64,000 nt of DNA from Nitrospirota bacterium (GCA_024275955.1 JAJRYD010000036.1:1-64000), one strand, 5' to 3'; positions 4,806 through 62,282 are shown, counted from the first letter of the stretch. Translations and numbers: made by a program. Notes: generated from the letters alone by a model not told the origin.

Positions 4806-5597
4806 ATGTTTTCGGGATTTCAGACAGCTTTAATAGTTGATGACGATTTTGACGCGAGAAAGTTTGTTGACGGTCTCTTGACGACTCAAATGGGGTTTGC
4901 ACGGGTTAAACAGGCGCAAAGCCCAGAAGTGGCGCTGGAGATGCTTGGCGAAGGCGAAAAGTTTGATATCATTTTCAGCGGGGACGAGTTTTCCCGTATG
5001 AAGGGGGACGAGTTTCTTGGTGAAATCCGCAAGAACCCTGAAACAGTAAAGACTCCGTTCATAATGATGAGCATAAAGAAAGATAAAGAATCTCTTGTTG
5101 CCGCTATCAGAGCCGGCGTTACCAACTACCTTGTAAAGCCGCTTACCGCTGGTCCTTTCATGCAGAAGATGAAAAAAACCTTTACAGATATTATCAGAAA
5201 GGAAGTCGAAAGATTTAACTCAGGCATAACAAACCATGCGGAAATATACCTTACGGGTGACAAGACTTTGATTGGCGAGCTGGTAGATGTTAGTGACAGC
5301 GATTGCGTAATCAGAACACCTATAATCGGCAGAGGGGTAGTTTATATATATGACTTGGTCGACGTGGGAATAAAATTTGAGGGTAGTCTGTTTAAGGTAC
5401 ACGGTGAAATAAAGAAAATAGAAGAAGATACGGTAGATACATCAATACGCTACTTCAATATGCTCTCTATACAGTTTAGCGACCTCGACCACAAGGCAAA
5501 GGGCAAGCTAGAGAGGCTTGTGACAAGCGTCCATGTGCAGAAGGTGGAAGCGGCGAAGGCTCAGCAAGGTTCTAAAGCTTCTTCCGAGCCAGCCTAA
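4806..5597 (+). CDS. Response-regulator receiver domain fused to a PilZ-like C-terminal domain
   Basis: N-terminal REC-like region (LIVDDD...IMMSIKKD...YLVKPL) with an atypical acceptor region (IIFSGDEF). The C-terminal beta-rich region is PilZ-like. An AAGGGGG SD precedes the start. Confidence 0.6.
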   Translation: MFSGFQTALIVDDDFDARKFVDGLLTTQMGFARVKQAQSPEVALEMLGEGEKFDIIFSGDEFSRMKGDEFLGEIRKNPETVKTPFIMMSIKKDKESLVAAIRAGVTNYLVKPLTAGPFMQKMKKTFTDIIRKEVERFNSGITNHAEIYLTGDKTLIGELVDVSDSDCVIRTPIIGRGVVYIYDLVDVGIKFEGSLFKVHGEIKKIEEDTVDTSIRYFNMLSIQFSDLDHKAKGKLERLVTSVHVQKVEAAKAQQGSKASSEPA

Positions 5598-5694
5598 GAA
5601 TAGGCCTATACCTACTTATAGTTTTTCCGCGTTCCGGCGGTATAACGACTGCGGGCCATCACTGTTCACGCGTGGTTGAGGTAAAAGCCGAGCT

Positions 5695-5825
5695 GGGACT
5701 GTTTCTGAAAAGAGTTTTTTTGAGCATCTCAAAGAAAAGTTTATTTTCTAGCTTCCGTAAAATAGAGATGTCAGAGATTGGCGATTTGTAGCGAAATCAA
5801 ATTTACGCGATTTGGCAACAGCCCC
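5695..5825 (+). repeat. Type-1 MITE-like repeat, copy 2 of 5
   Basis: GGGACTGTT...AACAGCCCC termini with the conserved core. Confidence 0.8.
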
Positions 5826-5951: not shown

Positions 5952-6243
5952 TAGCCGTCTCTCAAAAAGTTGTTTCATACTGCGAATAAAGGTTAATATC
6001 GGTTTTTAACTCTTTGGAAATCGCAAGAAGAATGAAGAAGTAACCAAAAACATAGTCATTAAACTCAAGGTTATTTGCAAGAACCTCCTCCTTAGCAAAG
6101 CGGAAAGAGGGGTCGCCCAAAGGGCGGGGGTGGTTCTTAGCCGGTAAGCCTTCCGGCATTCGACAGGCTCACGCCGCCTTCCCTTCTTAAAAAGGGAAAG
6201 GTTTTTATAATCGTTTAAACAGTAAATTTTTCAGGGACGACTA
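5952..6243 (+). repeat. Type-2 structured repeat (about 290 nt), copy A of 3
   Basis: tagccgtc.ctc.aaaaa...ttgtttcata...ctctttggaaatcgcaagaagaatgaa...ggtaagccttccggc.ttcgacaggctcacgcc...tttttcagggacgacta; imperfect terminal inverted repeat. Confidence 0.85.
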
Positions 6244-6278: not shown

Positions 6279-7454
6279 TTAATCATCTCTATTTTTCAGG
6301 TATTGTTGGACAGCCGAGAATTGTCCAGTCCGCTTTAGCATTTTTTTCGCGCGGTATGATTTTTCGGCCTGTTCAATCAGTTTTGTTATCATCTCTTTGA
6401 AGCTTATGCCGCTCTCTTCCCATAGATAAAAAGAAAGAGAGCCTGGGATGGAGTTTAGTTCGGTTATTGTAATCTCTCCGCTTTGGCTTAAAAGAAAATC
6501 TACCCGCGCGGAGCCGGAGCAGTCGAGCAGGTTGAACACTTTTACAGCAAGCTCTTTGATTTTTTTTGTCGTTGTTTCATCAATTTTCGCTGGTAAAGCC
6601 CGAGAGACGTTTGCCATTCCGCCGCCTGTTCCTTTTTTGCCGCCTTTCATATATTTTTGCTCGTAGTCAAGGAAGCCTTCGCTGAAAACCTCTTCACAAA
6701 CCGAAGCGACAGCATCTCCATCGCCTCCCATCACGGCGCAGTTTATCTCCCTCGGGTTTATCACTCCTTCTTCCACTATAAGCTTGCGGTCAAAACGGGA
6801 TGCCTCATCGAGAGCGGCAGAGAGGAGGTCGGCAGAATCTACTTTTGTAATCCCGACCGATGAGCCGGCAGAGGAAGGCTTTACAAATATAGGGAACCGG
6901 AAGCTGTCGGTTATCTCTTTTCGCACTTCAGCATTTTTATTTTCGATTCTACTTTTCAAAAAACCTTTAAACCTTACGATAGGCAAACCTTCTGCCTTTA
7001 GTATTAGCTTTTGAAATAGCTTGTCCATCCCGACTGCGCTTGATGCTACTGGTGAGCCTGTGTACGGTATATCGGCAAGCTCGAAAAGCCCCTGCAGGGA
7101 GCCATCCTCACCGCCGGAGCCATGAATAAGCGGGAAGGCGATATCTATTTTTAGATTGGTGTCTATCAGTTTTTGAAAGAACCGACCTGTATCGTGCCGT
7201 AAAGGGTAGGGCGGCAGTACCTTGCGGTTGAACTTTGCAAGGCCGCTTTTGTTGCCGGTAAAAATCTCTTTGTAGCGCGTCACATCTTTCAGCCGGTCGT
7301 CTACTATCCAGTCGCCATCCTCGGTTATGTAAACCGGCAGTGGGTCGTATTTTTCCTTATCAATGTTTTTGTAAACCTGATCGAAAGTTATTATAGAAAC
7401 TTCATGCTCGGCGCTTACCCCTCCGAATATAAGACCGACCCTCTTTTTTTGCAT
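6279..7454 (-). CDS. ddl: D-alanine--D-alanine ligase (ATP-grasp)
   Basis: N-terminus MQKKRVGLIFGGVSAEHEVS is the canonical Ddl start, followed by an ATP-grasp fold. The track ORF extends 13 codons further upstream; I chose the conserved Met. Confidence 0.8.
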   Translation of the reverse strand: MQKKRVGLIFGGVSAEHEVSIITFDQVYKNIDKEKYDPLPVYITEDGDWIVDDRLKDVTRYKEIFTGNKSGLAKFNRKVLPPYPLRHDTGRFFQKLIDTNLKIDIAFPLIHGSGGEDGSLQGLFELADIPYTGSPVASSAVGMDKLFQKLILKAEGLPIVRFKGFLKSRIENKNAEVRKEITDSFRFPIFVKPSSAGSSVGITKVDSADLLSAALDEASRFDRKLIVEEGVINPREINCAVMGGDGDAVASVCEEVFSEGFLDYEQKYMKGGKKGTGGGMANVSRALPAKIDETTTKKIKELAVKVFNLLDCSGSARVDFLLSQSGEITITELNSIPGSLSFYLWEESGISFKEMITKLIEQAEKSYRAKKMLKRTGQFSAVQQYLKNRDD

Positions 7455-7514
7455 CGGGTAAATATACCATACGGTTTTGGGCCAAGTCTCCAATGGAGGG
7501 GCTTAGCCCAAAGT

Positions 7515-7643
7515 GGGATTGTTTTCCAAAGAGATTTTTGAGCATTTTAAGGGAAAGCTCACTTTCTCACTTCTTTAAAGTGGAGCTGTCCGAGATCGGC
7601 AATTTTCAGCAAGATCAAACTTATCGCATTTGCCAACAGCGCC
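7515..7643 (+). repeat. Type-1 MITE-like repeat, copy 3 of 5 (more diverged)
   Basis: GGGATTGTT...caacagcgcc termini; the core is recognisable. Confidence 0.65.
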
Positions 7644-10145: not shown

Positions 10146-12707
10146 CTATCCCCAAAGAATGAGGCCCGGAATATATTTGGAGACCATATCTTTGTGGCTC
10201 GGCATTACTCTTATGGCAAAACCATGCGGGCCGGCGTTGTCGCACGGTATCTCTCCGCCAAAGCGGTATTCTCCTTCTTCGTTTTTATCTTCGCATTTTA
10301 GCGTTACTGTCTCGCCTTCAAGCAGTTCATCATGGCTCAGCGCTCCAAAATAGCATTCTACTACCAGCTCATCCGGTGATAGCCCGGCAAGCTGAATAAC
10401 AGTAGAGATACGTTTTCTTTGCCCCACTTTCAGGCTTTTAGGGGCTACACCCTCGTCAACGCTTATTACTTTAAGCTTGCTCCAGTCGTTTTTCAGCTTC
10501 AGCTTCCATTTTGCGAGCGATTTTATTATTTCCGGCTGTTCCACTACATACTTTTCCCAACGCCGGCCCAAAGGCAGGTAGAAACTTTTGGCATACTCCC
10601 TTACCATTCTGTTTGTATTAAACACAGGGTTAAGGGTTGTCATGCTCGACTTCATTTTGCTCACCCATTCTCTCGGCAGGCCGTCGGAACCTCTATTGTA
10701 AAAAAGCGGAATGATATCTTTTTCTATTACGTCGTAGAGGTTTTTGCTTTCCACAGCGTCCTGCACGGAGTGGTCTTCATAATCCTCACCATGCCCTATG
10801 GCCCAGCCTGTTTCTGGCGTGTATCCTTCATCCCACCATCCATCCAGTACCGAAAGGTTAAGCACGCCGTTGGCGGCCGCTTTCATTCCGCTTGTTCCGC
10901 TTGCTTCCAAAGGCCTTCTGGGGTTGTTAAGCCATACATCGCACCCTTGGACAAGGTATCTGGCAACATCTATATTGTAGTTTTCTATAAACACAAGGCG
11001 GTGGCCAAGGCCGTTTATTCTTGCGGCATGAATGATATCCTTGATAAGGTTTTTACCTTCCATATCTTTTGGATGGGCTTTTCCAGCAAAAATTATCTGA
11101 ACCGGCATATCTTTGCTACCAAGAATTTTAGTGAGCCGTTCGATATCTCTTAAAATAAGCGTTCCCCGCTTGTAGGTGGCGAAACGTCTCGCAAAGCCTA
11201 TCGTAAGAGTTTCAGGGTCCAGCACTTCGCTCGCGGTCTTTAGTTCGGATTCGGAAGCCCCTCTTCTTTTGAGTTGTTCCACAAGCCGCTTGCGGGTAAA
11301 CGCCACCAGCCTTTCCCTCCTCACCTCGTGCGCGCGCCATAGCTCCGAGTCTGGTATCTTTGAAATTTTTTTCCATATTGTGTCGTCGCCAGGTTTGTTT
11401 ATCCAGCTTACGCCGAGGTATCTTTCAAAAAGGTTTCTCAAGCCTTTGGATATCCATGTTCTTATATGTATTCCATTGGTTATGGAAAGTATAGGAACAA
11501 GGTCGATAGGAACATCTTTCCAGATATCTTTCCACATATGGCGGGAAACGTTTCCATGCAGTTTGGAAACTCCGTTGCTTCCGGCGGAAAGCCTCAGCGC
11601 GAATACCGTCATACAGAAAAGCTCTTCGTTGTCGCTGGGGTTTATACGGCCCAGAGCGATAAGCCTGTTTAAATCTATATCGGTATCCTTTATTACCGGC
11701 GTAACATAGGCCTGTACTATAGCTTTTTCAAATCTGTCGTTTCCTGCCGGCACGGGGGTATGGGTGGTAAAGACTGTCGAGGCTATGCAGGCTTCCTTCG
11801 CCTCGAAAAAAGTAAAACCTTTGTCACGCATAAGGTGTACTATCCGTTCGATATTCAGAAATGCCGAATGACCCTCGTTCATATGGAACGCGCTGACATC
11901 CACCCCTAGTTTGTGAAGAGCTTTTACCCCGCCGATGCCTATCAGTATCTCTTGTCTTATACGCATGTCAAGATCTCCTCCGTATAGCTGGGAGGTAATC
12001 TGCTGATCGTCCGGCCTGTTTTCTGGAATGTTGGTGTCGAGAAGATAAAGTGGAACCCTCCCAACCTCGGCCTTCCATATCTGGGCCTGTACGGTACGGT
12101 TCGGGTATGGAACTTTAACCTTGATAGGATTGCTATCGGCATCCATCTGTAGTTTTAGCGGAAGCAGATCAAAATTGTTGTCGTGCTGAACTTCCTGTTG
12201 CCAGCCGTCTGGGTTAAGGTATTGCTCAAAGTAGCCATGAGAGTAAGCAAGCCCAATGCCAACAAGCGGCAGGCCCAAATCGCTGGCTGACTTTAGATGG
12301 TCTCCAGCAAGAACGCCAAGCCCTCCAGAGTATATAGGGAGGCATTCATCTATGCCGAACTCAAGCGAGAAATAGGCGATATTGCTTTTTGGGTTCCATT
12401 CGTTTTGAGATGTCTCTTTAAACCATGTTTCTCCATTCAAGTAGTCTTTCAGCTGGAGAAGCACTCTTTTAGTGTGCGTAAGAAAACCATCGTCTTCCTC
12501 CAGCTCTTTTAACCGTCTCTGCGACGCCACGCCGAGGATATGCACAGGGTTGTGGTTAAGTTCGTCCCAAAGATCTGGTTCAATTCGACGTAGAAGATTT
12601 ACCGCGTCAGGGTTCCATGTCCACCAGAGGTTGTACGCGATATCTTCAAGAGGCGCTAGCTTTTTTGGAAGTGATGGCTCTACTATAAATTTGCGATATG
12701 TCGGCAT
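10146..12707 (-). CDS. glgP: Alpha-glucan (glycogen/maltodextrin) phosphorylase, GT35 family
   Basis: 853 aa with GT35 motifs (EGHSAF, FTTHTPVPAGNDRF, GTSGMKAAANG). Confidence 0.8.
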   Translation of the reverse strand: MPTYRKFIVEPSLPKKLAPLEDIAYNLWWTWNPDAVNLLRRIEPDLWDELNHNPVHILGVASQRRLKELEEDDGFLTHTKRVLLQLKDYLNGETWFKETSQNEWNPKSNIAYFSLEFGIDECLPIYSGGLGVLAGDHLKSASDLGLPLVGIGLAYSHGYFEQYLNPDGWQQEVQHDNNFDLLPLKLQMDADSNPIKVKVPYPNRTVQAQIWKAEVGRVPLYLLDTNIPENRPDDQQITSQLYGGDLDMRIRQEILIGIGGVKALHKLGVDVSAFHMNEGHSAFLNIERIVHLMRDKGFTFFEAKEACIASTVFTTHTPVPAGNDRFEKAIVQAYVTPVIKDTDIDLNRLIALGRINPSDNEELFCMTVFALRLSAGSNGVSKLHGNVSRHMWKDIWKDVPIDLVPILSITNGIHIRTWISKGLRNLFERYLGVSWINKPGDDTIWKKISKIPDSELWRAHEVRRERLVAFTRKRLVEQLKRRGASESELKTASEVLDPETLTIGFARRFATYKRGTLILRDIERLTKILGSKDMPVQIIFAGKAHPKDMEGKNLIKDIIHAARINGLGHRLVFIENYNIDVARYLVQGCDVWLNNPRRPLEASGTSGMKAAANGVLNLSVLDGWWDEGYTPETGWAIGHGEDYEDHSVQDAVESKNLYDVIEKDIIPLFYNRGSDGLPREWVSKMKSSMTTLNPVFNTNRMVREYAKSFYLPLGRRWEKYVVEQPEIIKSLAKWKLKLKNDWSKLKVISVDEGVAPKSLKVGQRKRISTVIQLAGLSPDELVVECYFGALSHDELLEGETVTLKCEDKNEEGEYRFGGEIPCDNAGPHGFAIRVMPSHKDMVSKYIPGLILWG

Positions 12708-13854: not shown

Positions 13855-16800
13855 ATGCTGTTAAGCTGTCCCAAGTGTCGTAGCGGCTACGAAGTTGATA
13901 GTGAGTCAATTCCTAAGGAGGGTACTTACGCCCATTGCACTTCGTGCGAGAATATATTTTTTGTAAAGCACAAAACAACCTCTGGCACTAGCGAAGATAA
14001 GCCTCCCTCCGACAAGCCCGAGCCTTCCCAAACGCTCGGCGAAGAGGGCTCTTTTCCTGATTCTCACGATACCAGCGAAGGCGAAACAATAGCAAAATCC
14101 TTAGAGTCAGATTCGGACGATGGTGACGATTCGGATATTAATGATATCTCTACTAAAGCTTTCTTTTCTGAAGATATTGAAGATGACAAAGAAGATTTTA
14201 GCAGAACTCAGTCACTCTCTGCCCAAGCGGCCGAAGAGGCTTTGGGTGAAACCGAAAAATATATACTTGGAGAGAGAGGCGGTATAGAACCTGATGAGAG
14301 CCTTCAAGACGATACGGGGCAGGAGGAAGCAGAAGTTGAGTATCTTGAGAATGATGTTCTGCTGGAAGCCGATGACGACGATATCCTCATTAGCGATGGC
14401 GGAGATGACGGGCTAGAGGTTGACAGCAGTTTAGATTTTGGCGAAGGGGTAGATGTAGTAGATGAAAATGCGGGAGACGACGATTCTATCAAACTTCTCG
14501 ATTCCCAAATTGGTGAAATAGTACCCGAGGAGGTTTGGACAAAAGATTCTGCTAAAGCCGAACCTGACGACGATGTAATCTTAGAAAACTCCGACGATAA
14601 AATAGTCGAGACCATTCTGCAGGCCGATTCGGACCAGCCGGAGCCTGCCCAAACCGGCTCAGAAGTGTCAAGCTCCTCTGAATCCTCCTCAATGAAACCT
14701 GAGGCAATAAGGGACCCAAGCGATATTGATACTCTTTTCCTTGACGTGCAGGATGCTTTTGATGACGCGGATGAGGAGAACCCGGCCGCCTTAATAGAAA
14801 ACATGGACGATGTAGATGAAACTCCTCAAGAAAGTGTTGTGGAGGAAGAAACTGTTTTGGCTATCGCCCAAACTGTAGATGAAAGCGGGACGAAACAGGC
14901 CGAAGATGAAGCAGTTTCCACAGGTGATGGTTCACCGGCAGTTGAGACTGCCGGCAATAATACCGATAGCGAAGTAGATATCGAAGATATCGGCGCTGTA
15001 GCCGCGGATATTTCGGGTGAAATCGAAGTTGAGGACGGGTCGGAGGAGCTTGACACTAACGAACTGGAGTCAATTTTTGAGAGTGTAAATAACGCCGAAC
15101 CAGAGCCTGTTCCAGACGAATTGATAGATGAAATGCTTAGCGAAGATAAACAAGGTGGAGGTCTGCTCGACGAAATACTCGACGAAGGTTCTGCCGCCGA
15201 GGAGGGTAAAACTTTTGAGGTTCCAGAGCCAATAGATGACGAGGTCGACTCCAAGCTTTTCGGCATTAAGGGTAATGAGGGTACAAGTGTTCTTCCAGAA
15301 GATGCGATCGACTCTGTTCTTCAACATGCCGGTGACGGAAAAAGTGAAGATATCGAATCTGTCTTTGAACCGGGTTCCGATGAAGATGAAGATATTACAA
15401 GCTTTCTAGATGAAACTATGTCCGGCGAAGACGACGATGCGAACTTGCTGGATAGCGACATGGAAGCTATTTTTAGTGAAGGAGAGTTAGAGGCGGCTGT
15501 GCAAAAAGATGGCGTGGAAAAACCTCAAGCACCTGAAAAGCCCAAACCGAATCTTCAAGACGGCATAGATGCTCTTTTTGAGTCAAGCGTCAGTGGGCAG
15601 GAAACCGATGCCGAAAAAGAGGAAACGGTAGGCGACTTGGAGGCTATTGTAGATGCCGGAAGCGAAAAAGCTGTCGACGCGCAAAGCGAGATAGACGCTC
15701 TTTTCGAATCTTCGGCAAAGGAAGCTGAAAAATTACCTCAAGACGATCTCGAGGCATTTATTGACTCCGAGAGCAGTCTAAGCGAATCTTCCGTAGCGGA
15801 TGAAATACTAGGCGGCAATTCAGCTAAAGAGGAGCCTGCAAAAGAAGCGTCTGGTCAGGACGATATAGACGCGATATTTTCTGCCAACGCGCCAGAGGCA
15901 GAAGCGAAAGCAGATGATGGCGGTTCAGCCTCTGGTCAGGACGATATAGACGCGATATTTTCTGCCAACGCACCGGCGACAGAAGCGAAAGCAGATGATG
16001 GCGGTTCAGCCTCTGGTCAGGACGATATAGATGCGATACTTTCTGCCAACGCACCGGCGACAGAAGCGAAAGCAGATGATGGCGGTTCAGCCTCTGGTCA
16101 GGACGATATAGATGCGATATTTTCTGCCAACGCGCCAGAGGCAGAAGCGAAAGCAGATAATAGTGGTTCAGCGTCTGGTCAGGACGATATAGATGCGATA
16201 CTTTCTGCCAACGCGCCAGAGGCAGAAGCGAAAGCAGATGATAGTGGTTCAGCGTCTGGTCAGGACGATATAGACGCGATACTTTCTGCCAACGCACCAG
16301 AGGCAGAAGCGAAAGCAGATGGTAGTGGTTCAGCGTCTGGTCAGGACGATATAGACGCGATACTTTCTGCCAACGCGCCAGAGGCAAAAGCGAAAGCAGA
16401 TGATAGTGGTTCAGCCTCTGGTCAGGACGATATAGACGCGATACTTTCTGCCAACGCGCCAGAGGCAAAAGCGAAAGCAGACGAACCGCAGGAAGAGGCT
16501 CCTGCTGGAGATGGGTTAGTCTCTCAGGGCGATCTTGATGCTCTTTTTGCATCGGATGACCCTGCAGAGGAGAGTAGCTTGGCCGAAGATACCGCTGGAG
16601 CCGATGGTGCCGATTTAACAGAATCTGTAGGAATCGACACTGGTGATGAGCTGGAGGATCTTCTTTCTGAAACAGTCGATGTAGGTGCTGATGCTGGGTT
16701 GCCTGATGATGAAGCTGGTGTGTCAGTCTCTCAGGATGATCTTGATGCCCTGTTTGAATCCGAAGGTGGCGGGGATGCCGGTTCTAGTCAATCGGAAGAT

Positions 16801-17793
16801 GATGACCTTTTTAGCGAGGATGCCCAAGGGGACGGCGATATAGAATCTCTTATAGGTTCGGAAGCCGATACGGCGGATGAAGGTTCTGGCGAGGATGAGA
16901 GCATAGGCATAGATACTTCCATGCTGGAGTCGCTCGATGATGAACTGGGGGATGAAAAAGAGGCAGAATCTTCAGATGATGTTATGTCAGAAGAAGAGGC
17001 CGCCGCTTTGGTTGATCAAGGTGAAGATGGTGATGGAGAAGCTAAAAAGATAAGCTTCGGCACTCTTTTTTCTGGAAGCAGAAAAAAGAAAGCGGTGATG
17101 GCTGGTGTCGCTCTGTTGCTGGTAGCGCTTGGCGTAACTTTTTTCTACTACAAAGATACCTTTTTGCCTTCCGATAGCGAAGATATAGTTGCTCAAACAG
17201 GTGAGATAGTCGGCACCATAATTGAGCAGCCTGCTGTAATGGACGAACCTCTAGATGAGGCGGGGGAGGCTGTTGCCGAGAAACCAGCGGAATTTGCAGA
17301 AAGCGTTGAAGACGATTTTGCGGTTGTCGATGATGATTTTGTGGCTGTCGATGACGATGTAAAAGCGGAAGCGAAAGTAGCCCCCCAAAAGGAGGCAGGA
17401 AGAACAGCTCAAAAAAATGAGCAGGCAAAAGAGACCGCTTTTGCCCAGACTGGCAAAGCAGATGATGAGACTGTAGATTTTGCGGAAGGTAAAGATGTGA
17501 AGTTTGGGATAATAGTACCTGTCGATTACAATGCTCAGGCAGTTAGAGTAATGACAGCCGATGTAATGATAACCTTTAAAAGCTCGCAGGAGCGTGTTTC
17601 TGCCGAGAAGAAAAGGTTTTTATATGAAATGGCTATTGAAGACGAAATAGAAAAGTTTTTTCTGGAAAAATTTTATGAAGATACCCATTACGTTCAGGAC
17701 AAAATAATCGCCGACCTTAACAGCAAGTTTAAAAAGCGCCGCGATATGGGGAAAATTGCTGAAATAGATATTCAGAACTTCAAGCTTCGTTAA
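13855..17793 (+). CDS. 1312-aa hyper-acidic protein. It has an N-terminal MJ0042/AgmX-type zinc ribbon (CxxC-x19-CxxC), about 1000 aa of D/E-rich low complexity with 8x27-aa tandem repeats, one TM helix and a C-terminal globular domain
   Basis: CPKC-x19-CTSC at residues 5-31. The repeat unit is SGQDDIDAI[FL]SANAPEAEAKADDGGSA. The TM helix is VMAGVALLLVALGVTFFYY, and the C-terminal roughly 200 aa are non-acidic. Confidence 0.8.
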   Translation: MLLSCPKCRSGYEVDSESIPKEGTYAHCTSCENIFFVKHKTTSGTSEDKPPSDKPEPSQTLGEEGSFPDSHDTSEGETIAKSLESDSDDGDDSDINDISTKAFFSEDIEDDKEDFSRTQSLSAQAAEEALGETEKYILGERGGIEPDESLQDDTGQEEAEVEYLENDVLLEADDDDILISDGGDDGLEVDSSLDFGEGVDVVDENAGDDDSIKLLDSQIGEIVPEEVWTKDSAKAEPDDDVILENSDDKIVETILQADSDQPEPAQTGSEVSSSSESSSMKPEAIRDPSDIDTLFLDVQDAFDDADEENPAALIENMDDVDETPQESVVEEETVLAIAQTVDESGTKQAEDEAVSTGDGSPAVETAGNNTDSEVDIEDIGAVAADISGEIEVEDGSEELDTNELESIFESVNNAEPEPVPDELIDEMLSEDKQGGGLLDEILDEGSAAEEGKTFEVPEPIDDEVDSKLFGIKGNEGTSVLPEDAIDSVLQHAGDGKSEDIESVFEPGSDEDEDITSFLDETMSGEDDDANLLDSDMEAIFSEGELEAAVQKDGVEKPQAPEKPKPNLQDGIDALFESSVSGQETDAEKEETVGDLEAIVDAGSEKAVDAQSEIDALFESSAKEAEKLPQDDLEAFIDSESSLSESSVADEILGGNSAKEEPAKEASGQDDIDAIFSANAPEAEAKADDGGSASGQDDIDAIFSANAPATEAKADDGGSASGQDDIDAILSANAPATEAKADDGGSASGQDDIDAIFSANAPEAEAKADNSGSASGQDDIDAILSANAPEAEAKADDSGSASGQDDIDAILSANAPEAEAKADGSGSASGQDDIDAILSANAPEAKAKADDSGSASGQDDIDAILSANAPEAKAKADEPQEEAPAGDGLVSQGDLDALFASDDPAEESSLAEDTAGADGADLTESVGIDTGDELEDLLSETVDVGADAGLPDDEAGVSVSQDDLDALFESEGGGDAGSSQSEDDDLFSEDAQGDGDIESLIGSEADTADEGSGEDESIGIDTSMLESLDDELGDEKEAESSDDVMSEEEAAALVDQGEDGDGEAKKISFGTLFSGSRKKKAVMAGVALLLVALGVTFFYYKDTFLPSDSEDIVAQTGEIVGTIIEQPAVMDEPLDEAGEAVAEKPAEFAESVEDDFAVVDDDFVAVDDDVKAEAKVAPQKEAGRTAQKNEQAKETAFAQTGKADDETVDFAEGKDVKFGIIVPVDYNAQAVRVMTADVMITFKSSQERVSAEKKRFLYEMAIEDEIEKFFLEKFYEDTHYVQDKIIADLNSKFKKRRDMGKIAEIDIQNFKLR
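15850..16497 (+). repeat. Eight near-identical 81-nt tandem repeats inside the CDS
   Basis: Period of 81 nt (tctggtcaggacgatatagacgcgata...), varying at only a few positions. Confidence 0.9.
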
Positions 17794-17826
17794 TTCTTTA
17801 GAAATTTTCATACACTTTTTTGTATC

Positions 17827-18257
17827 TAGCCGTCCCTGAAAAAATTGTTTCATGCCTCAGACAAAGTTTAATATCGGTCTTAAACTCTTTGGAAATCGCA
17901 AGAAAAATGAAAAAGTAATCAAAAACATAGTTATTAAACTCAAGGTTATTTATAAAAATCTCCTCCTTAGCGAAGCGGAAGGAGGGGGAACTCGAAGGGC
18001 GGGGGGTGCTTCTTAGTCAGGTAAGCCTTCCGGCGTTCGACAGGCTCACGCCGTCTTCCCTTCTTAAAAAGGGAAAGATTTTTATAATCGCTTAAACAAT
18101 AAAGGGGCTGTTGCCGAATGGCATAAATTCGATTTTTCCACAAATCGCCAATCGCTAAAACCTCTCTTTTAAAGAAGTCAGAAAATAAACTTTTCTTTAA
18201 AACACTTAAAAACTCTTTTGGAAACAGTCCCATAAACAGCTTTTTCAGGGACGACTA
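17827..18257 (+). repeat. Type-2 structured repeat, copy B, carrying a nested type-1 element
   Basis: Termini are tagccgtccctgaaaaaa ... tttttcagggacgacta. The interior is about 90% identical to copy A. Confidence 0.85.
18104..18233 (-). repeat. Type-1 MITE-like repeat, copy 4 of 5, inserted inside type-2 copy B in inverted orientation
   Basis: The reverse complement gives gggactgtttccaaaagagttttt...ggcaacagcccc. Confidence 0.8.
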
Positions 18258-18354
18258 TTTAAGATTAAGTTCTTGGATTTCAGTTTCCATACACTTTTTT
18301 CTACCTAAGATTAAGTTCTTGAACTTTTGCGGCTTTGATGGGAGTATCTTATGA

Positions 18355-19020
18355 ATGCCGAAAATAATGATCGTTGATGATGACCCAAACATAGCATTAC
18401 TGCTGGAGCTTACCCTTAAAAAGGATTCTGGGTTTGAAGTGGTCAAGTTCATAAACGGTCAGGACGCTTTGGACAACATAGAAAAAGAGAAGCCAGATCT
18501 CATTTTACTTGACGTGATGATGCCGGGCTTAGACGGCTACGAAGTTTGTCGGCGTATTAAATCTTCAGAGAAGACTAGATATGTATCTGTCATAATTCTT
18601 TCCGCCAAAAGGGAGCTGGAAGACAAAATTAAAGGAATGAGCATCGGAGCCGATGATTACATAGTAAAACCGTTTAACCCTGAGGAATTGCTTGTAAGGG
18701 TGTATGTTCAGCTTCGGATGAGAAAGCTGGAAGTGGAGCTGGTCGACAAGAAAAAACTGGAAACCGTTCTTGCTATGTCTGTAACGATGCAACACGAAAT
18801 AAACAATCCGCTGGCTGGAATACAAGGCAATGCTGACCTGCTGAGAGATTGGCGCGACATGGAGGAAAGTGAAGTGGATGATCTGGTGAATATAATCCGT
18901 GAACAGACAAAAAGGATCAATGTGATAATGAAGGAGATGTCATCTGCTACAAAAGTGGCGGAAACGTCGTACCTCGGCTCTACCAAAATGATAAATTTAA
19001 AAAAATTAAAAGATGATTAG
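18355..19020 (+). CDS. Orphan receiver (REC) domain fused to a HisKA/DHp phosphoacceptor domain with no HATPase domain
   Basis: Canonical REC (IMIVDDD...LLDVMMPGLDG...ILSAK...IVKPF) followed by an H-box (MQHEINNPLAGIQGNADLL). The protein ends 60 aa later with no ATP-binding N/G boxes. Confidence 0.75.
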   Translation: MPKIMIVDDDPNIALLLELTLKKDSGFEVVKFINGQDALDNIEKEKPDLILLDVMMPGLDGYEVCRRIKSSEKTRYVSVIILSAKRELEDKIKGMSIGADDYIVKPFNPEELLVRVYVQLRMRKLEVELVDKKKLETVLAMSVTMQHEINNPLAGIQGNADLLRDWRDMEESEVDDLVNIIREQTKRINVIMKEMSSATKVAETSYLGSTKMINLKKLKDD

Positions 19021-19051: not shown

Positions 19052-19345
19052 TAGTCGAAGCTGAGAAAGTTGTTTCATACTGCAAATAAAGCTTAATAGT
19101 CGGTTTTTAACTCTTTGGAAATCGCAAGAAGAATGAAAAAGTAAGCAAAAACATGGTTATTAAACTCAAGGTTATTTACAAAAATCCCCTTGCATAGCAT
19201 AAGGAGGGGCCACCCGAAGGGTGGGGGGGCTTCTTAGTCAGGTAAGCCTTCCGGCGTTCGACAGGCCCACGCCGTCTTCCCTTTTTAAAAAGGGAAAGGT
19301 TTTTATAATTGTTTAAACAATAAACAGCTTTTTCAGGGACAACTA
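19052..19345 (+). repeat. Type-2 structured repeat, copy C
   Basis: Same architecture as copies A and B, with compensatory substitutions in two hairpins. Confidence 0.85.
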
Positions 19346-19570: not shown

Positions 19571-20017
19571 TTATTGTGCCTTAGCCGGCTTACCCAAGTA
19601 GCTCTTCCTGTTTTTTCTGCCGTTGTCGACAGCGGCGTAAAAATAAGGGCCGGCCAGCTTAGCTTTTGTTGCCTCAAGTTTTCCCTCGTCCGGTTGCGAA
19701 ACAAGCGCGATTGCCAAAAAACCTTTTTTACCAAAAATTTCCCTCAAGCTGTAAGACCACTCAAGAAGTTTTCGCGCTATCTCGACATCATCTTTGTAGA
19801 AAAATATAAGAACCACCTTTCCGTTAGTCTTTTCCATATCAAGGGGCAGGGTAACCCATTGCTCGGTTTTTATAGCTGGCCACTGTTGGCCCAGCATTAG
19901 TGATGCCTGACGAATGTTGAATTTAACCGCGGTGATAAAAAAGAGAATCAGTACGGTAGAGATAAAGAAGAGCCGCAGGTTTGCGACTTGTACTTTTTTT
20001 TGAACAGTGTCCATCAT
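19571..20017 (-). CDS. Hypothetical membrane-anchored protein (148 aa) downstream of gatA
   Basis: N-terminal TM helix. Co-directional with gatCA and tightly spaced. No recognisable motif. Confidence 0.45.
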   Translation of the reverse strand: MMDTVQKKVQVANLRLFFISTVLILFFITAVKFNIRQASLMLGQQWPAIKTEQWVTLPLDMEKTNGKVVLIFFYKDDVEIARKLLEWSYSLREIFGKKGFLAIALVSQPDEGKLEATKAKLAGPYFYAAVDNGRKNRKSYLGKPAKAQ

Positions 20018-31479: not shown

Positions 31480-33084
31480 ATGAAAAACCTGAAGATTGAC
31501 GCTGTGATGACCGATAATGTGATTACGGCAAAACCTGCCGAGTCTCTTTGCGATGTTATTTCAAAAATGGCGCGAAATAGAGTCAGCTGTGTCGTCATAG
31601 CGGAAAATTCCACTCCTCTCGGCATACTCTCCGAGGCAGATGTAATCTTTCTTCTAAAAAGCGGAATAGACCAGAGTACGCCGGTCAAAGAGATTAAAAT
31701 AAGCCCTGTCGAGAAAATAGGTGCCGATCAGTCGATAGTAGACGCTGTGATTATGATGGAGAAAAAAGCTCTTGGGTCGGTGGTGGTTCTTGGTTCCAAA
31801 GCGGAGCTAAAGGGGATACTGACAATTACCGATATAGTGAAAAAAGTCGATGACATGGATTTTGTTTCGAGGCAGAAGGTTAAATATTCAATGTCGAAAA
31901 GCATTATTCTTGTGGGCGAGATGGACAGTGTCGGCGACTGCATAATGAAGATGGGCGAGATGAACATTGACAATGTAATTGTTACCGCCCAGAAAAAAGG
32001 TGTCGGCATATTTACAAGGCGTGACGCTATAAAAGCGGTAGGCAACTGCGCAGATTTCGAAAAAGGCACCTGCGGTTTAGATACCTCCGACCATCGCTGT
32101 ACCGCTTCTGATCCTGTTTATAAGTATATGACTACATCACTCATCACGATAAGCCCGGAGAGTTTTATCTTCGAGGCGTGCCAGCTTATGGTAGACAACA
32201 ATGTCAGGCGTGTAATTATCGTAAATTCCAAAGGTCATCCAAACGGTATTATCTCCCAAAAGGAGTTACTAAGGCGGCTCGACTCTAATTATTCGGAGCT
32301 TATGTCTTTGGCGGTAAGCGAGTCTGAAAACAAAACAAACAGCAGAGATGAGGGGGAGCTAAAGAATTTACGGGAAAAGGCAGGGGAGGCAGAGCGGATA
32401 AAGACGGCGTTTTTGAGCAGTGTTTCGCATGAGCTTCGCACGCCGCTTACCGCCATAATCGGGTTTGGAAAACTTATTCATGCTAAGAACGGTCTGCCTG
32501 AAGATGTTAAAAAGCAGAGCGGCGTTATAGTTAAGCAGGGGAAGAACCTGCTTTCGATGGTAAATAAAATGCTGGGAATAGCCGGTGCCGATAAAGAGTA
32601 TGGCGAAACCGTAGCGCAGGAACTGCTTGTTATCGATATTTTAGACGATGCCGTTTTTACCTGTTGCGAAGCGGTGAAATGCAAAAACCTGAAGGTAGAA
32701 ACCGGCATCGACCCAGCTTTGCCGAGAACTGTTATGGTAGACAGAGAGTCTCTCTTGCTCTCTCTTGAACAGCTTGTAGACAACGCGGTGAAGTTTTCTA
32801 ACGAAGGCGCAAAGCTTGCGGTATCGGCAAAGCTGGACGGCGATAAAATTCTTTTTGAAGTGAAAGATTTTGGGATAGGGATGGAGCGTGGCAACCTAGA
32901 GTCGGTATTCGAAAATTTCACTCAACTCGATGATTCTATATGCAGGGAGTATGGCGGAGCAGGTCTTGGTCTGCCGTTTGCCAAGGCTATGGTTATAGGG
33001 ATGGGCGGCACTATTTGGGGGGAGAGTAGTTTGGGGGAGGGAAGCTCTTTCTTTATTTCTATCCCTTTTTATAAAGCTGGCTAG
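31480..33084 (+). CDS. Sensor histidine kinase with four N-terminal CBS domains (HisKA plus HATPase_c)
   Basis: CBS pairs, then an H-box SHELRTPLTAI, then N, G1 and G2 boxes (GGAGLGL). Confidence 0.85.
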   Translation: MKNLKIDAVMTDNVITAKPAESLCDVISKMARNRVSCVVIAENSTPLGILSEADVIFLLKSGIDQSTPVKEIKISPVEKIGADQSIVDAVIMMEKKALGSVVVLGSKAELKGILTITDIVKKVDDMDFVSRQKVKYSMSKSIILVGEMDSVGDCIMKMGEMNIDNVIVTAQKKGVGIFTRRDAIKAVGNCADFEKGTCGLDTSDHRCTASDPVYKYMTTSLITISPESFIFEACQLMVDNNVRRVIIVNSKGHPNGIISQKELLRRLDSNYSELMSLAVSESENKTNSRDEGELKNLREKAGEAERIKTAFLSSVSHELRTPLTAIIGFGKLIHAKNGLPEDVKKQSGVIVKQGKNLLSMVNKMLGIAGADKEYGETVAQELLVIDILDDAVFTCCEAVKCKNLKVETGIDPALPRTVMVDRESLLLSLEQLVDNAVKFSNEGAKLAVSAKLDGDKILFEVKDFGIGMERGNLESVFENFTQLDDSICREYGGAGLGLPFAKAMVIGMGGTIWGESSLGEGSSFFISIPFYKAG

Positions 33085-33955: not shown

Positions 33956-34261
33956 CTACAGAGCGCCGTAAACTGCCAGCGATGACAATGTTTTTCCATC
34001 GGCCATCCCAGCGCCCATGCCGATGGTCATTCCTGTTATCATGCCGAGCATTACAAGCTGAAGCCCGCCAAACATAGTGGAGAAAAGGAGTAGCATAGGG
34101 AATACTATAGCCATTCCAAGAATCATCCCTAGAAGCATCGCTGGGATCATAGGCCACCCGTCGGGAACGGTAAAGCCGGCAAAAACAGCGGCGACGGTAC
34201 CGTAGAGCAGGGCGACTATATAATCAAACATTCTTAGAAGAGCAGTGTTGTCTGGTTCCAT
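33956..34261 (-). CDS. Small glycine-zipper membrane protein (101 aa)
   Basis: Starts at the internal Met MEPDN of the track ORF. Three TM segments rich in GMxxGM repeats. The longer track ORF would overlap rnpB. Confidence 0.4.
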   Translation of the reverse strand: MEPDNTALLRMFDYIVALLYGTVAAVFAGFTVPDGWPMIPAMLLGMILGMAIVFPMLLLFSTMFGGLQLVMLGMITGMTIGMGAGMADGKTLSSLAVYGAL

Positions 34262-34295
34262 CTTCAAGATGATAAACCATTTAAGCGAATAAAAA

Positions 34296-34668
34296 AACGA
34301 AGGCGGACTATAAGCCGGATTCTGTACCCTCAATGGGGCGACGGTCATCCATCTAGCCGATCCGTTGCCGGAACGGTCAAGCAACCAACCCGAAGGTAAA
34401 AGGCGAGCAACCTTCATCCCGTTTAAGGGAAACACCTTCCTATTTGGTCTTGCACCGGGCAGGGTTTACCATGCGACCCGCGTCGCCGCAGGCCCGGTGA
34501 GCTCTTACCTCACCATTTCACCCTTACCTGACAAAAAGTCAGGCGGTATATTTTCTGTGGCACTTTCCCTAGGATTACTCCCGCTCCCCGTTAAGGAGTG
34601 CCGTACTCTGCGGTGTCCGGACTTTCCTCCAGACCTTTAAAAGGCCTGGCAACCGTCCGTCCGCCCTC
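34296..34668 (-). ncRNA. rnpB: RNase P RNA (bacterial type A)
   Basis: The minus strand carries GGAGGAAAGUCCGG..., AGGGUGAAAUGGUGAGGUAAGAGCUCACC, and the 3' ACAGAAUCCGGCUUA. P1 pairs ggcggac with gtccgcc, followed by a U-run. Confidence 0.9.
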
Positions 34669-41418: not shown

Positions 41419-42771
41419 CTATATCTGCATCTCTTTCATTTTGCGCCAGAGAGTTGTGCGGTCTATTCCGAGTATTTTGGCCGCTTTAGTTTTTTGGCCA
41501 CCTGTTTGTCTTAATGCCTCGGCTATTTTCTCCCGCTCATCGGAGGTTTCCAAATATATGGCAGGGCTGTCGTGATGGTTTTTGTATGCCATAAGCGGTT
41601 TTTCCGTAATCTCTTCCGGCAGATGCTCCGGCAGTATCGGCCCTTCATCACATAGCACGAATGCTTGGGCGATAGCATTTTCAAGTTCTCTCACGTTTCC
41701 AGGCCAGCGGTGCTTTACAAGGAGCTTCATCGCCATGTCGGTTATTCCGCTTATCGGCTTTTCTGTTATTGCCAGTTGCCGTTCTATGAAATGGTTGGCA
41801 AGCGGCGGTATATCGTCCACCCGTTCCCTGAGCGGGAGTATCCGCATTCTTACAACCTTTACACGGTAATAAAGATCCTCACGGAACGACCCTTCTTTAA
41901 CCATCTCGGCTAACGACCTGTTTGTGGCGGTGATTACCCGTATGTCAACTTTTCGCTGTTTGGTGTCGCCTACAGCCTCTATTGTTTTATCCTGCAGAAC
42001 CGTAAGAAGTTTTACCTGTGTAGCATGCGATATTTCTCCAATCTCATCGAGAAATATGGTGCCGCCTCTTGCAAGCTCGAAACGGCCTATACGGTCTTTC
42101 ATCGCTCCTGTAAAAGCGCCTTTAACATGGCCGAACAGTTCCGATTCAAGCAGGTTTTCCGAAAGCGCCGCACAGTTTACTTTTACGAAAGGGGCATCTT
42201 TGCGTTTTGATTTTTTATGTATCGCTTCCGCCACAAGCCCTTTACCTACGCCCGATTCCCCTTCAAGAAGTACAGCCGCGTTAGAGTCGGCCACTTTGTC
42301 TATCATGGTGTACATCTCGATCATCTGTTTGCTCTTGCCTATAAGACGGTGATAGGCATATTGCGATTTCAATATCTGCTGAAGCCTTTGCCTTGCGGAG
42401 ATGTCGTGAAGTATTGCCACCACTCCGCCTTGCTTCTCATTTTCGTCGTAGAGTATCGACGTGGAGAGTATTATTGTTTTTTCGTCGCCAGCGTAATCGG
42501 TGAACTTCATGGAGTAATCTTTTATCGGTTCCTGTTTTTTTACCGTCTCTAGCAGTAGGTCTTTTATGTCGGCAAGCATCTCGTTGCAGAAACAGTATTT
42601 GCCTATTACATGTCCCTTTTTTCGGCCAAAAAACCTTTCGGCCGCTTCGTTCATGCTTACAATCTTAAGATCGTTATTGAGCGATATTATTCCGTCATGG
42701 ACAGAGTTGAATACAGCTTCGAGATTTTTTTTAAGCCTTAGGCAGGAATCTATTTTTTTGGCTCTTTCCAT
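41419..42771 (-). CDS. Sigma-54-dependent transcriptional activator (PAS sensor, AAA+ with GAFTGA, Fis-type HTH)
   Basis: GESGVGKG Walker A, GAFTGA, ESELFGH, and a C-terminal HTH. Confidence 0.9.
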
Positions 42772-42836: not shown

Positions 42837-42965
42837 GGGACTGTTTCCAAAAGAGTTTTTTGAGCATTTGAAGGAAAAGTTTATTTTCTAACTTCTTCTA
42901 AAATAGAGCGGCTAGAGGTTGGCAATTTGCGGCAAAACCAAGATTGTGTTATTCCGCGACAGCCC
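42837..42965 (+). repeat. Type-1 MITE-like repeat, copy 5 of 5
   Basis: gggactgtttccaaaagagttttttgagcatttgaagg...cgcgacagcccc. Confidence 0.8.
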
Positions 42966-42976
42966 CATGTAAGAAA

Positions 42977-61970: not shown

Positions 61971-62282
61971 GCTTTTCACCTAACTTCGTTAATCGCTTCT
62001 TTTGCCAGAGGTTCGTCGCTAAAACTTTTCTAAAGTCTTTTCACCAGCTTTAGCTTTGCGAGCGTGCTGTTAGGCTTATCGGGTCGTTGCCAGATAGCAT
62101 AAATTTGGCTTTGCTATAAATTGCCAATCTCTAATGGCTCTGTTTTTAAGAAGCTAGAAAACAAACTCCCCCTCCTTAAATGTTCAAAAAAACTCTTTTC
62201 AAAAACAGCTCTCTCACGGGAGGCGGCCGAGTGGAAAGGCCGGAAACATAACAGCATATTTCCGGCCGTAAAATTTAATGGT

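Follow-up and report, generated by a model that had tools for sequence, protein, structure and literature searches.

The REC-DHp gene and its product

The 64-kb stretch of DNA analysed here (the window) carries on its + strand, at 18355..19020, a complete coding sequence in the ORF list, which runs from an ATG start through 221 aa to a stop codon. Its orthologues share the MPKIMIVDDD start, and a GGGAG lies at 18340-18344, 10 nt 5' of the ATG. Residues 4-116 of the product (18364..18702, +) constitute a receiver (REC) domain (Pfam PF00072, Response_reg, E 7.1e-32, 110 bits), whose signature residues are D8-D9-D10, the phospho-acceptor D53 in LLDVMMPG (codon 18511-18513, +), S83 in ILSAK and K105 in VKPF; Pfam, the orthologue alignment and an AF2 model together display the (beta/alpha)5 fold, the acidic DD pocket, the phospho-acceptor Asp, the S/T and the Lys of a receiver. 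A signalling helix, alphaS (residues 117-143; 18703..18783, +), delimited by the AF2 model, a fixed KP-to-His spacing and collinearity with the Leptospira protein LvrB (see below), leads from REC alpha5 into DHp alpha1. It is followed by a DHp/HisKA helical hairpin at residues 144-197 (18784..18945, +), as marked out by Pfam PF00512 (residues 144-195, E 1.1e-11, 45 bits, above the gathering score), an invariant H-box and the AF2 helices. The H-box, MQHEINNPLAGIQG (residues 145-158; 18787-18828, +), houses H147 (codon 18793-18795), and the same three lines of evidence (Pfam, alignment, AF2) recover all the hallmarks of a HisKA-type DHp, namely the two-helix hairpin, H147, the acidic E148 at His+1 and N151 at His+4. 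The protein closes with a short C-terminal tail, TKVxxTxY-x5-MID[IL], which is conserved in the alignment (residues 198-221; 18946..19017, +).

The initial annotation of this locus had described a receiver joined to a DHp domain without an ATPase domain, and this is borne out by Pfam, which finds Response_reg and HisKA with HATPase_c absent even at E <= 1. The receiver residues and the intact H-box (H147) that it named are all present at 18355-19020, and its estimate that the protein ends about 60 aa past the H-box agrees with the 63 residues counted after that string; the C-terminus lies 74 residues beyond H147 and 24 beyond DHp helix 2. A functional histidine kinase features a CA (HATPase_c) domain with N, G1, F and G2 boxes; as this domain is missing, autophosphorylation of the REC-DHp protein is impossible and it is not a self-sufficient kinase.

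Neighbouring genes, repeats and orthologue contexts

Upstream of the REC-DHp gene lies a giant ORF (13855-17793, +), which encodes an extremely acidic protein of 1312 aa with an N-terminal Zn_ribbon_4 as its only Pfam match. It contains an 81-nt tandem repeat of 7.9 copies at 15846-16481, encoding 27-aa units of the form GSASGQDDIDAI[FL]SANAPEAEAKADD, a hydrophobic segment near residue 1040 and a C-terminal domain of ~130 aa without a family match. The initial annotation had placed this ORF on the same strand, about 560 nt away and with repeats between, all of which holds: the spacer measures 561 nt and is filled with repeats.

These repeats belong to two types that resemble MITEs (miniature inverted-repeat transposable elements). 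Repeat A, as delimited by a repeat finder, blastn and alignments, is ~290 nt long and present in three copies that are ~87% identical, two of which bracket the REC-DHp gene as direct copies: copy 1 occupies 17829..18258 (+) in the spacer, copy 2 lies immediately 3' of the gene at 19053..19345 (+; RNA fold z = -2.97) and copy 3 is at 5952-6243 (+). The element displays ~22-nt terminal inverted repeats (GYCGTCCCTGAAAAA..TGTTT), a GC-rich internal hairpin and, in each copy, a terminator-like hairpin on the + strand, which the terminator scan places at 18056-18075 (+) in copy 1 and at 19277-19296 (+) in copy 2. Repeat B is a MITE-like element of ~125 nt with the termini GGGGCTGTT...AACAGTCCC and has six copies in the window, 73-84% identical and all outside large predicted genes. 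One of these is nested in repeat A copy 1 (18104-18231) and appears flanked by duplicated ATAAA; the others are at 1521-1651, 5694-5825, 7514-7643, 42837-42966 and 62086-62167. A search of the related loci found no copies of the flanking repeats, and Rfam assigned them to no RNA family. Rfam gave only the RNase P RNA for the whole window (bacterial class A, 34295-34668, -, 319 bits), overlapped by a mechanically called ORF (33956-34435) that is probably spurious. Just 5' of the REC-DHp start, a 43-bp unit (TTTYCATACACTTTTTTSTAYCTA + AGATTAAGTTCTTGRAYTT) is intact at 18284-18326, and its second occurrence (17805-17828 / 18259-18280) is split by the MITE-like insertion; the duplication may concern a promoter or a leader.

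Elsewhere, the window consists of ordinary housekeeping chromosome and encodes GatA, GreA, RecN, PBP1, GroEL, the RNase P RNA and others. The histidine kinase that the initial annotation reported at 31480 is real, and combines four CBS domains with HisKA and HATPase_c (31480-33084). A second receiver protein is encoded at 4806-5597 (+), with a REC domain (E 3.5e-17) ahead of a PilZ-like region that scores weakly (E 0.007) and stays below the Pfam cutoff; just 3' of its gene lies a copy of repeat A. A sigma-54 activator at 41419-42771 (-) displays the architecture PAS - Sigma54_activat - HTH_8, and with a PAS domain instead of a receiver it is not a candidate phospho-partner of the REC-DHp protein. 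Convergent with the REC-DHp gene is an ORF of 148 aa (19571-20017, -) without a Pfam or NCBIfam match; a hydrophobic N-terminal segment, recognised by eye, suggests that it may encode a small membrane or secreted protein.

Across ~15 neighbourhoods, orthologues of the REC-DHp gene occur in at least five different contexts. The orthologue of locus L001, which is 73% identical, sits between folE and an RlmI-like methyltransferase gene. In L005 and L087 the next gene is the peptide deformylase gene def (11070-11627 and 6703-7266, respectively), followed by a BcrAD/HGD-D giant gene, and in two further lineages TRAP-transporter DctP genes come next (L088, 6747-7856; L089, 6782-8955). In a Nitrospinota set of seven loci (L003/L004, L007, L008, L091, L092, L093 and L113), the orthologue lies directly 3' of a conserved cluster (5382-9901 in L003) coding for a MarR-like protein (149 aa), CheX (153 aa), a GT2 glycosyltransferase, a PIG-L deacetylase and a protein of ~506-550 aa, sometimes with a divergent PilZ gene between. 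The last of these proteins matches nothing in Pfam or NCBIfam, and a BshC-like assignment, based on a motif picked out by eye in the ~506-aa neighbour, was dropped as NCBIfam gave no match. In the clusters of the seven CheX-bearing loci, no receiver other than that of the REC-DHp protein was found, which is circumstantial evidence that fits a receiver really cycling through a phosphorylated state. The window itself holds no homologues of the five cluster proteins. No two-component partner is conserved in the ~15 orthologue contexts.

These contexts bear on the suggestion of the initial annotation that the REC-DHp protein is functionally tied to the giant gene. A partnership in which the giant zinc-ribbon acidic protein acts as scaffold and the REC-DHp protein as relay node would be in keeping with their common strand and separation of 561 nt, but we consider it very improbable. 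Searches by tblastn with the N-terminal domain, the C-terminal domain and the full length of the giant protein found no homologue in 169 related loci, ~15 of them orthologue neighbourhoods. The synteny that had been put forward as a check is likewise lacking, the pairing being seen in none of these ~15 neighbourhoods, including that of the 73%-identical orthologue beside folE. The spacer, moreover, is occupied by two nested MITE-like insertions and a terminator-like hairpin. With the orphan contexts, the repeat-filled spacer and the housekeeping surroundings, the pairing is not supported, and on this genomic evidence we propose that the REC-DHp gene is a monocistronic orphan, uncoupled from the giant gene; this result has no bearing on what the giant gene does.

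Conservation and predicted structure

A large protein search recovered full-length orthologues in ~55 clusters, with lengths of 218-261 aa, identities of 44-73% and REC and HisKA as their only domains; the best full-length matches reach E 6e-99, which is far beyond chance. All orthologues with a named source are from Nitrospinota/Nitrospinae, and the family is apparently confined to the Nitrospinota and a few unclassified MAGs such as L010, to go by the sequences collected. Among the matches listed by a contig scan with the family alignment, which included one generic REC motif pattern, there are at least three Nitrospinota loci and the unclassified CA-less locus L010. A profile search of a library of 1.84 billion representatives placed three family representatives among the best 150, which says nothing about the size of the family; this best-150 list is dominated by multi-REC hybrid proteins because their scores add up. 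Some orthologues are on contigs of up to 2.2 Mb with unrelated genes downstream, which shows the stop codon to be genuine.

In an alignment of 35 orthologues D8, D9, D10, D53, K105 and the stretch H147-E148-I149-N150-N151-P152-L153 are invariant, and S/T83 and Y102 of the receiver are conserved; the H-box His, whose conservation had been named in the initial annotation as a point to verify, thus passes that comparison. DHp helix alpha1 is the most conserved segment, with a mean pairwise identity of 74% versus 59% for REC. In 59/59 CA-less relatives that carry the H-box motif, exactly 42 residues (six heptads) separate the receiver KP motif from the His, against 36, 40, 47 or 65 in CA-bearing relatives. 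Within the tail Y206 and M212 are invariant, and the next two positions, I/V and D/N, have I213 in 91% and D214 in 86% of the sequences. The tail aligns with the CA-bearing relative P0083 up to residue 215, 38 residues before the Pfam HATPase_c start at 253, and so occupies the position between the HisKA end and the HATPase_c start of that protein. The alignment gives it the appearance of a leftover from the first CA strands, and its conservation suggests that it probably has a role.

The possibility of a frameshifted HATPase_c domain downstream, which the initial annotation had raised against its own reading, was addressed by tblastn of eight REC-HisKA-HATPase_c relatives against the whole window. 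These queries matched residues 2-213 of the REC-DHp ORF and elsewhere only the receiver gene at 4806-5597 and the CBS kinase at 31480-33084, with no remnant of a CA domain in any frame 3' of the REC-DHp gene; decay of a full kinase is therefore not indicated. That the gene is a decayed or truncated histidine kinase, whether as pseudogene or assembly artefact, is next to inconceivable: the closest CA-bearing relatives are indeed 350-385 aa long and the tail bears a likeness to the first part of a CA domain, but ~55 orthologue clusters across a phylum agree in length and stop position, the catalytic residues are invariant and the DHp highly conserved, and downstream there is a repeat element and then a convergent gene in place of a CA remnant. 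The constant length and stop, the invariant residues, the fixed spacing and the conserved DHp point instead to a family that is under purifying selection and not to a pseudogene.

An AF2 monomer model built on the family alignment (pLDDT 82.6) predicts a (beta/alpha)5 receiver (pLDDT ~85-94) and one continuous helix spanning residues 109-163, which unites REC helix 5, alphaS and DHp helix 1, followed by a second helix at 171-197. The alphaS region is of modest confidence (pLDDT 68-73), and the tail is modelled as a low-confidence beta-hairpin at 203-213. Foldseek against the PDB retrieved mostly receiver domains, among them those of PhoB, VicR and RR468 at an rmsd of ~1 A. The best match spanning both domains, over ~220 columns, was to chains of the Leptospira protein LvrB (8vc9), entered as a 'hybrid response regulator'. 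Taken by themselves, the C-terminal 102 residues again have LvrB as their best PDB sequence match (E 1.5e-6); the HEINNPL core is identical and residues 124-196 are collinear with LvrB 138-209, and the NCBIfam LvrB model recognises the same 102 residues at E 1.3e-9. A more specific assignment of the DHp as NtrB/HPK4-like, with an NtrC-type partner, was rejected, as the NCBIfam models for NtrB, ZraS and AtoS score weaker than those for CreC, LvrB and KinD.

LvrB is the prototype of the receiver-controlled histidine kinases (Rec-HKs), with the arrangement Rec-DHp-CA; phosphorylation of its Rec domain induces an alphaS coiled coil and frees the CA domain, the signal covering > 50 A to the HK core, and a symmetric state has been proposed to be phosphatase-active (PMC13269768). 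The REC-DHp protein displays the Rec-alphaS-DHp arrangement and the LvrB-like H-box of this type and lacks its C-terminal CA, which makes it a CA-less relative of the Rec-HKs and not a member. Without a CA domain, the family falls outside the definitions of both histidine kinases and Rec-HKs; judged from the alignment and the model, it is best described as an LvrB-like Rec-HK cut off just after the DHp.

Predicted function and comparison with known systems

The most reasonable reading of the REC-DHp protein, which we infer from its domains and conserved residues, is a phosphorelay node or phosphatase and not a kinase. Within that reading, we lean towards a DHp dimer that is gated by phosphorylation and acts on a separate response regulator, removing phosphate from it or exchanging phosphate with it. 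Dimerisation, allosteric gating, the phosphatase or phosphotransfer activity and the identity of the partner are each elements that we infer. An unlinked kinase would phosphorylate D53, and this phosphorylation, by analogy with LvrB, would re-pack the two alphaS helices of the dimer and alter the DHp bundle; the feature of the family that speaks for such a switch is the invariant 42-residue linker. The bundle would then bind the receiver of the separate response regulator and set the phosphorylation state of that regulator. In this last step the DHp would act mainly as an N151-dependent phosphatase; it might also take phosphate reversibly onto H147 with the help of E148, following the logic of the RedD-to-RedE-to-RedF transfers in Myxococcus. 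Isolated DHp domains of EnvZ and NtrB keep phosphatase activity toward their own regulators.

Kinase chemistry in HisKA domains requires an acidic residue at His+1, and phosphatase chemistry a T/N at His+4 (PMC3510030); in the 35 orthologues the kinase-linked Glu (E148) and the phosphatase-linked Asn (N151) are both invariant. As a pure phosphatase has no need of an invariant E148, models that involve a relay or trans-phosphorylation stay alive. The gated-phosphatase model also leaves the conserved tail (Y206, M212) unexplained. One tentative proposal that accommodates the tail is that the family represents a distinct signalling class, in which an ATP-independent, phosphorylation-gated DHp dimer might serve orphan response regulators as a dedicated hub for phosphatase action and phosphate exchange, or might be one half of a split kinase, namely its substrate; the tail (Y206, M212-I-D) would then regulate or dock in place of the CA domain. 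We hold this to be possible, though rather doubtful; if true, it would mean that an LvrB-type alphaS switch can control DHp output without a catalytic domain.

In a fused relay of the Spo0F-Spo0B kind, phosphate would pass from a kinase to D53, from there to H147 of the same dimer and on to a terminal response regulator. Such a relay accords with the invariance of D53, H147 and the His+1 acid E148, a residue tied to His phosphorylation chemistry (PMC3510030), and Asp-to-His transfer onto a histidine kinase-like protein that does not autophosphorylate is documented from RedD to RedE (PMC2755868). However, the receiver and DHp are joined by one continuous helix in the AF2 model, the distance from receiver to His in the homologous LvrB is > 50 A, and Spo0B or HPt models are unmatched in Pfam and NCBIfam. 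By analogy with LvrB, the two sites lie at the far ends of a long helix, so that in-cis transfer from D53 onto H147 looks unlikely on steric grounds unless a second dimer takes part, and we consider the fused relay improbable.

We likewise see little chance that the protein has a true kinase as its partner, either by forming a DHp heterodimer with an LvrB-like or other HisKA kinase, as its receiver-controlled modulator or inhibitor, or by providing the substrate of a split kinase that receives its CA domain in trans. In favour of this, DHp domains mediate dimerisation, the H-box is identical to those of bona fide Rec-HKs, E148 is kept, and the conserved tail, located where a CA domain would begin, could serve as a dock for a foreign one. 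RetS-GacS provides the precedent of a heterodimer that modulates or inhibits a HisKA kinase, and in vitro a separately added CA domain can phosphorylate the isolated DHp of EnvZ. Against such a partnership, neither a kinase gene nor a stand-alone HATPase_c gene is a conserved neighbour in the ~15 contexts, and the window's sole histidine kinase is encoded 12 kb off, in an unrelated region.

The gated phosphatase or exchange reading can be set beside several systems that separate DHp function from kinase activity. The initial annotation had invoked RedE of Myxococcus xanthus, a histidine kinase-like protein that does not autophosphorylate, whose His takes phosphate from a receiver and which acts as a phosphatase (PMC2755868). 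As a functional analogy, this precedent for phosphotransfer and phosphatase action stands: RedE is a non-kinase DHp node that receives phosphate from RedD and dephosphorylates RedF (PMC2755868). As an architectural one it does not, since RedE has a HATPase_c domain; its transmitter combines this conserved HATPase_c with a poorly conserved HisKA and has no REC, the reverse of the REC-DHp protein in the parts kept, from which the HATPase_c of a RedE-like HisKA + HATPase_c transmitter is missing. Spo0B and ChpT are similar as dimeric four-helix-bundle His carriers that have no kinase activity and shuttle phosphate between receivers, but they carry a degenerate CA-like alpha/beta domain and no REC. 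Sequence matches between them and the REC-DHp protein are absent, the Spo0B, ChpT and HPt models being missing from the Pfam and NCBIfam results, and the tail is too short for an alpha/beta domain.

In domain content, the protein resembles the archaeal REC-(PAS/GAF)n-HisKA regulators and the 'incomplete HK' of P2CS, which have REC and HisKA with the conserved His and lack HATPase (PMC5847659). A role as phospho-acceptor or phosphatase was proposed for these proteins, none of which has been the subject of experiments (Galperin et al. 2018, PMC5847659). The archaeal proteins differ in having PAS/GAF domains between REC and HisKA, unlike the direct fusion with a fixed 42-residue linker in the Nitrospinota, so that the likeness here is one of shared domains. 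HisKA proteins without HATPase have been catalogued for years as 'incomplete kinases' (PMC5847659; bioRxiv 10.64898/2026.02.27.708494), with none characterised, and a small soluble REC-DHp protein of 221 aa would offer a tractable first case. Our full-text literature search found no characterised protein consisting of REC and DHp only; the texts that it retrieved describe a REC-HisKA-HATPase_c hybrid kinase and LvrB. In annotation, the protein should not be labelled a kinase, nor a regulator of the PleD or OmpR family, the names that some sources give to its orthologues.

The closest characterised relative, which the initial annotation missed, is LvrB (8vc9, PMC13269768), together with other Rec-HKs such as PhcR. 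They have in common with the REC-DHp protein a phosphorylatable N-terminal REC, a continuous alphaS running into a HisKA DHp and the HEINNPL motif. Overall identity between LvrB and the REC-DHp protein is only ~25%, and LvrB has a functional CA domain and autophosphorylates H161, whereas the REC-DHp family stops ~25 residues past DHp helix 2. The mechanistic paradigm of the Rec-HKs is recent (LvrB, 2026), and here is a natural CA-less counterpart whose conservation extends over a whole phylum, that of marine nitrite oxidisers and related bacteria. With the His+1 Glu and His+4 Asn both invariant, this natural version provides a clean experiment on what a DHp does alone under receiver gating. 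The REC-DHp family would be a neat natural dissection of a Rec-HK, mildly unusual rather than surprising.
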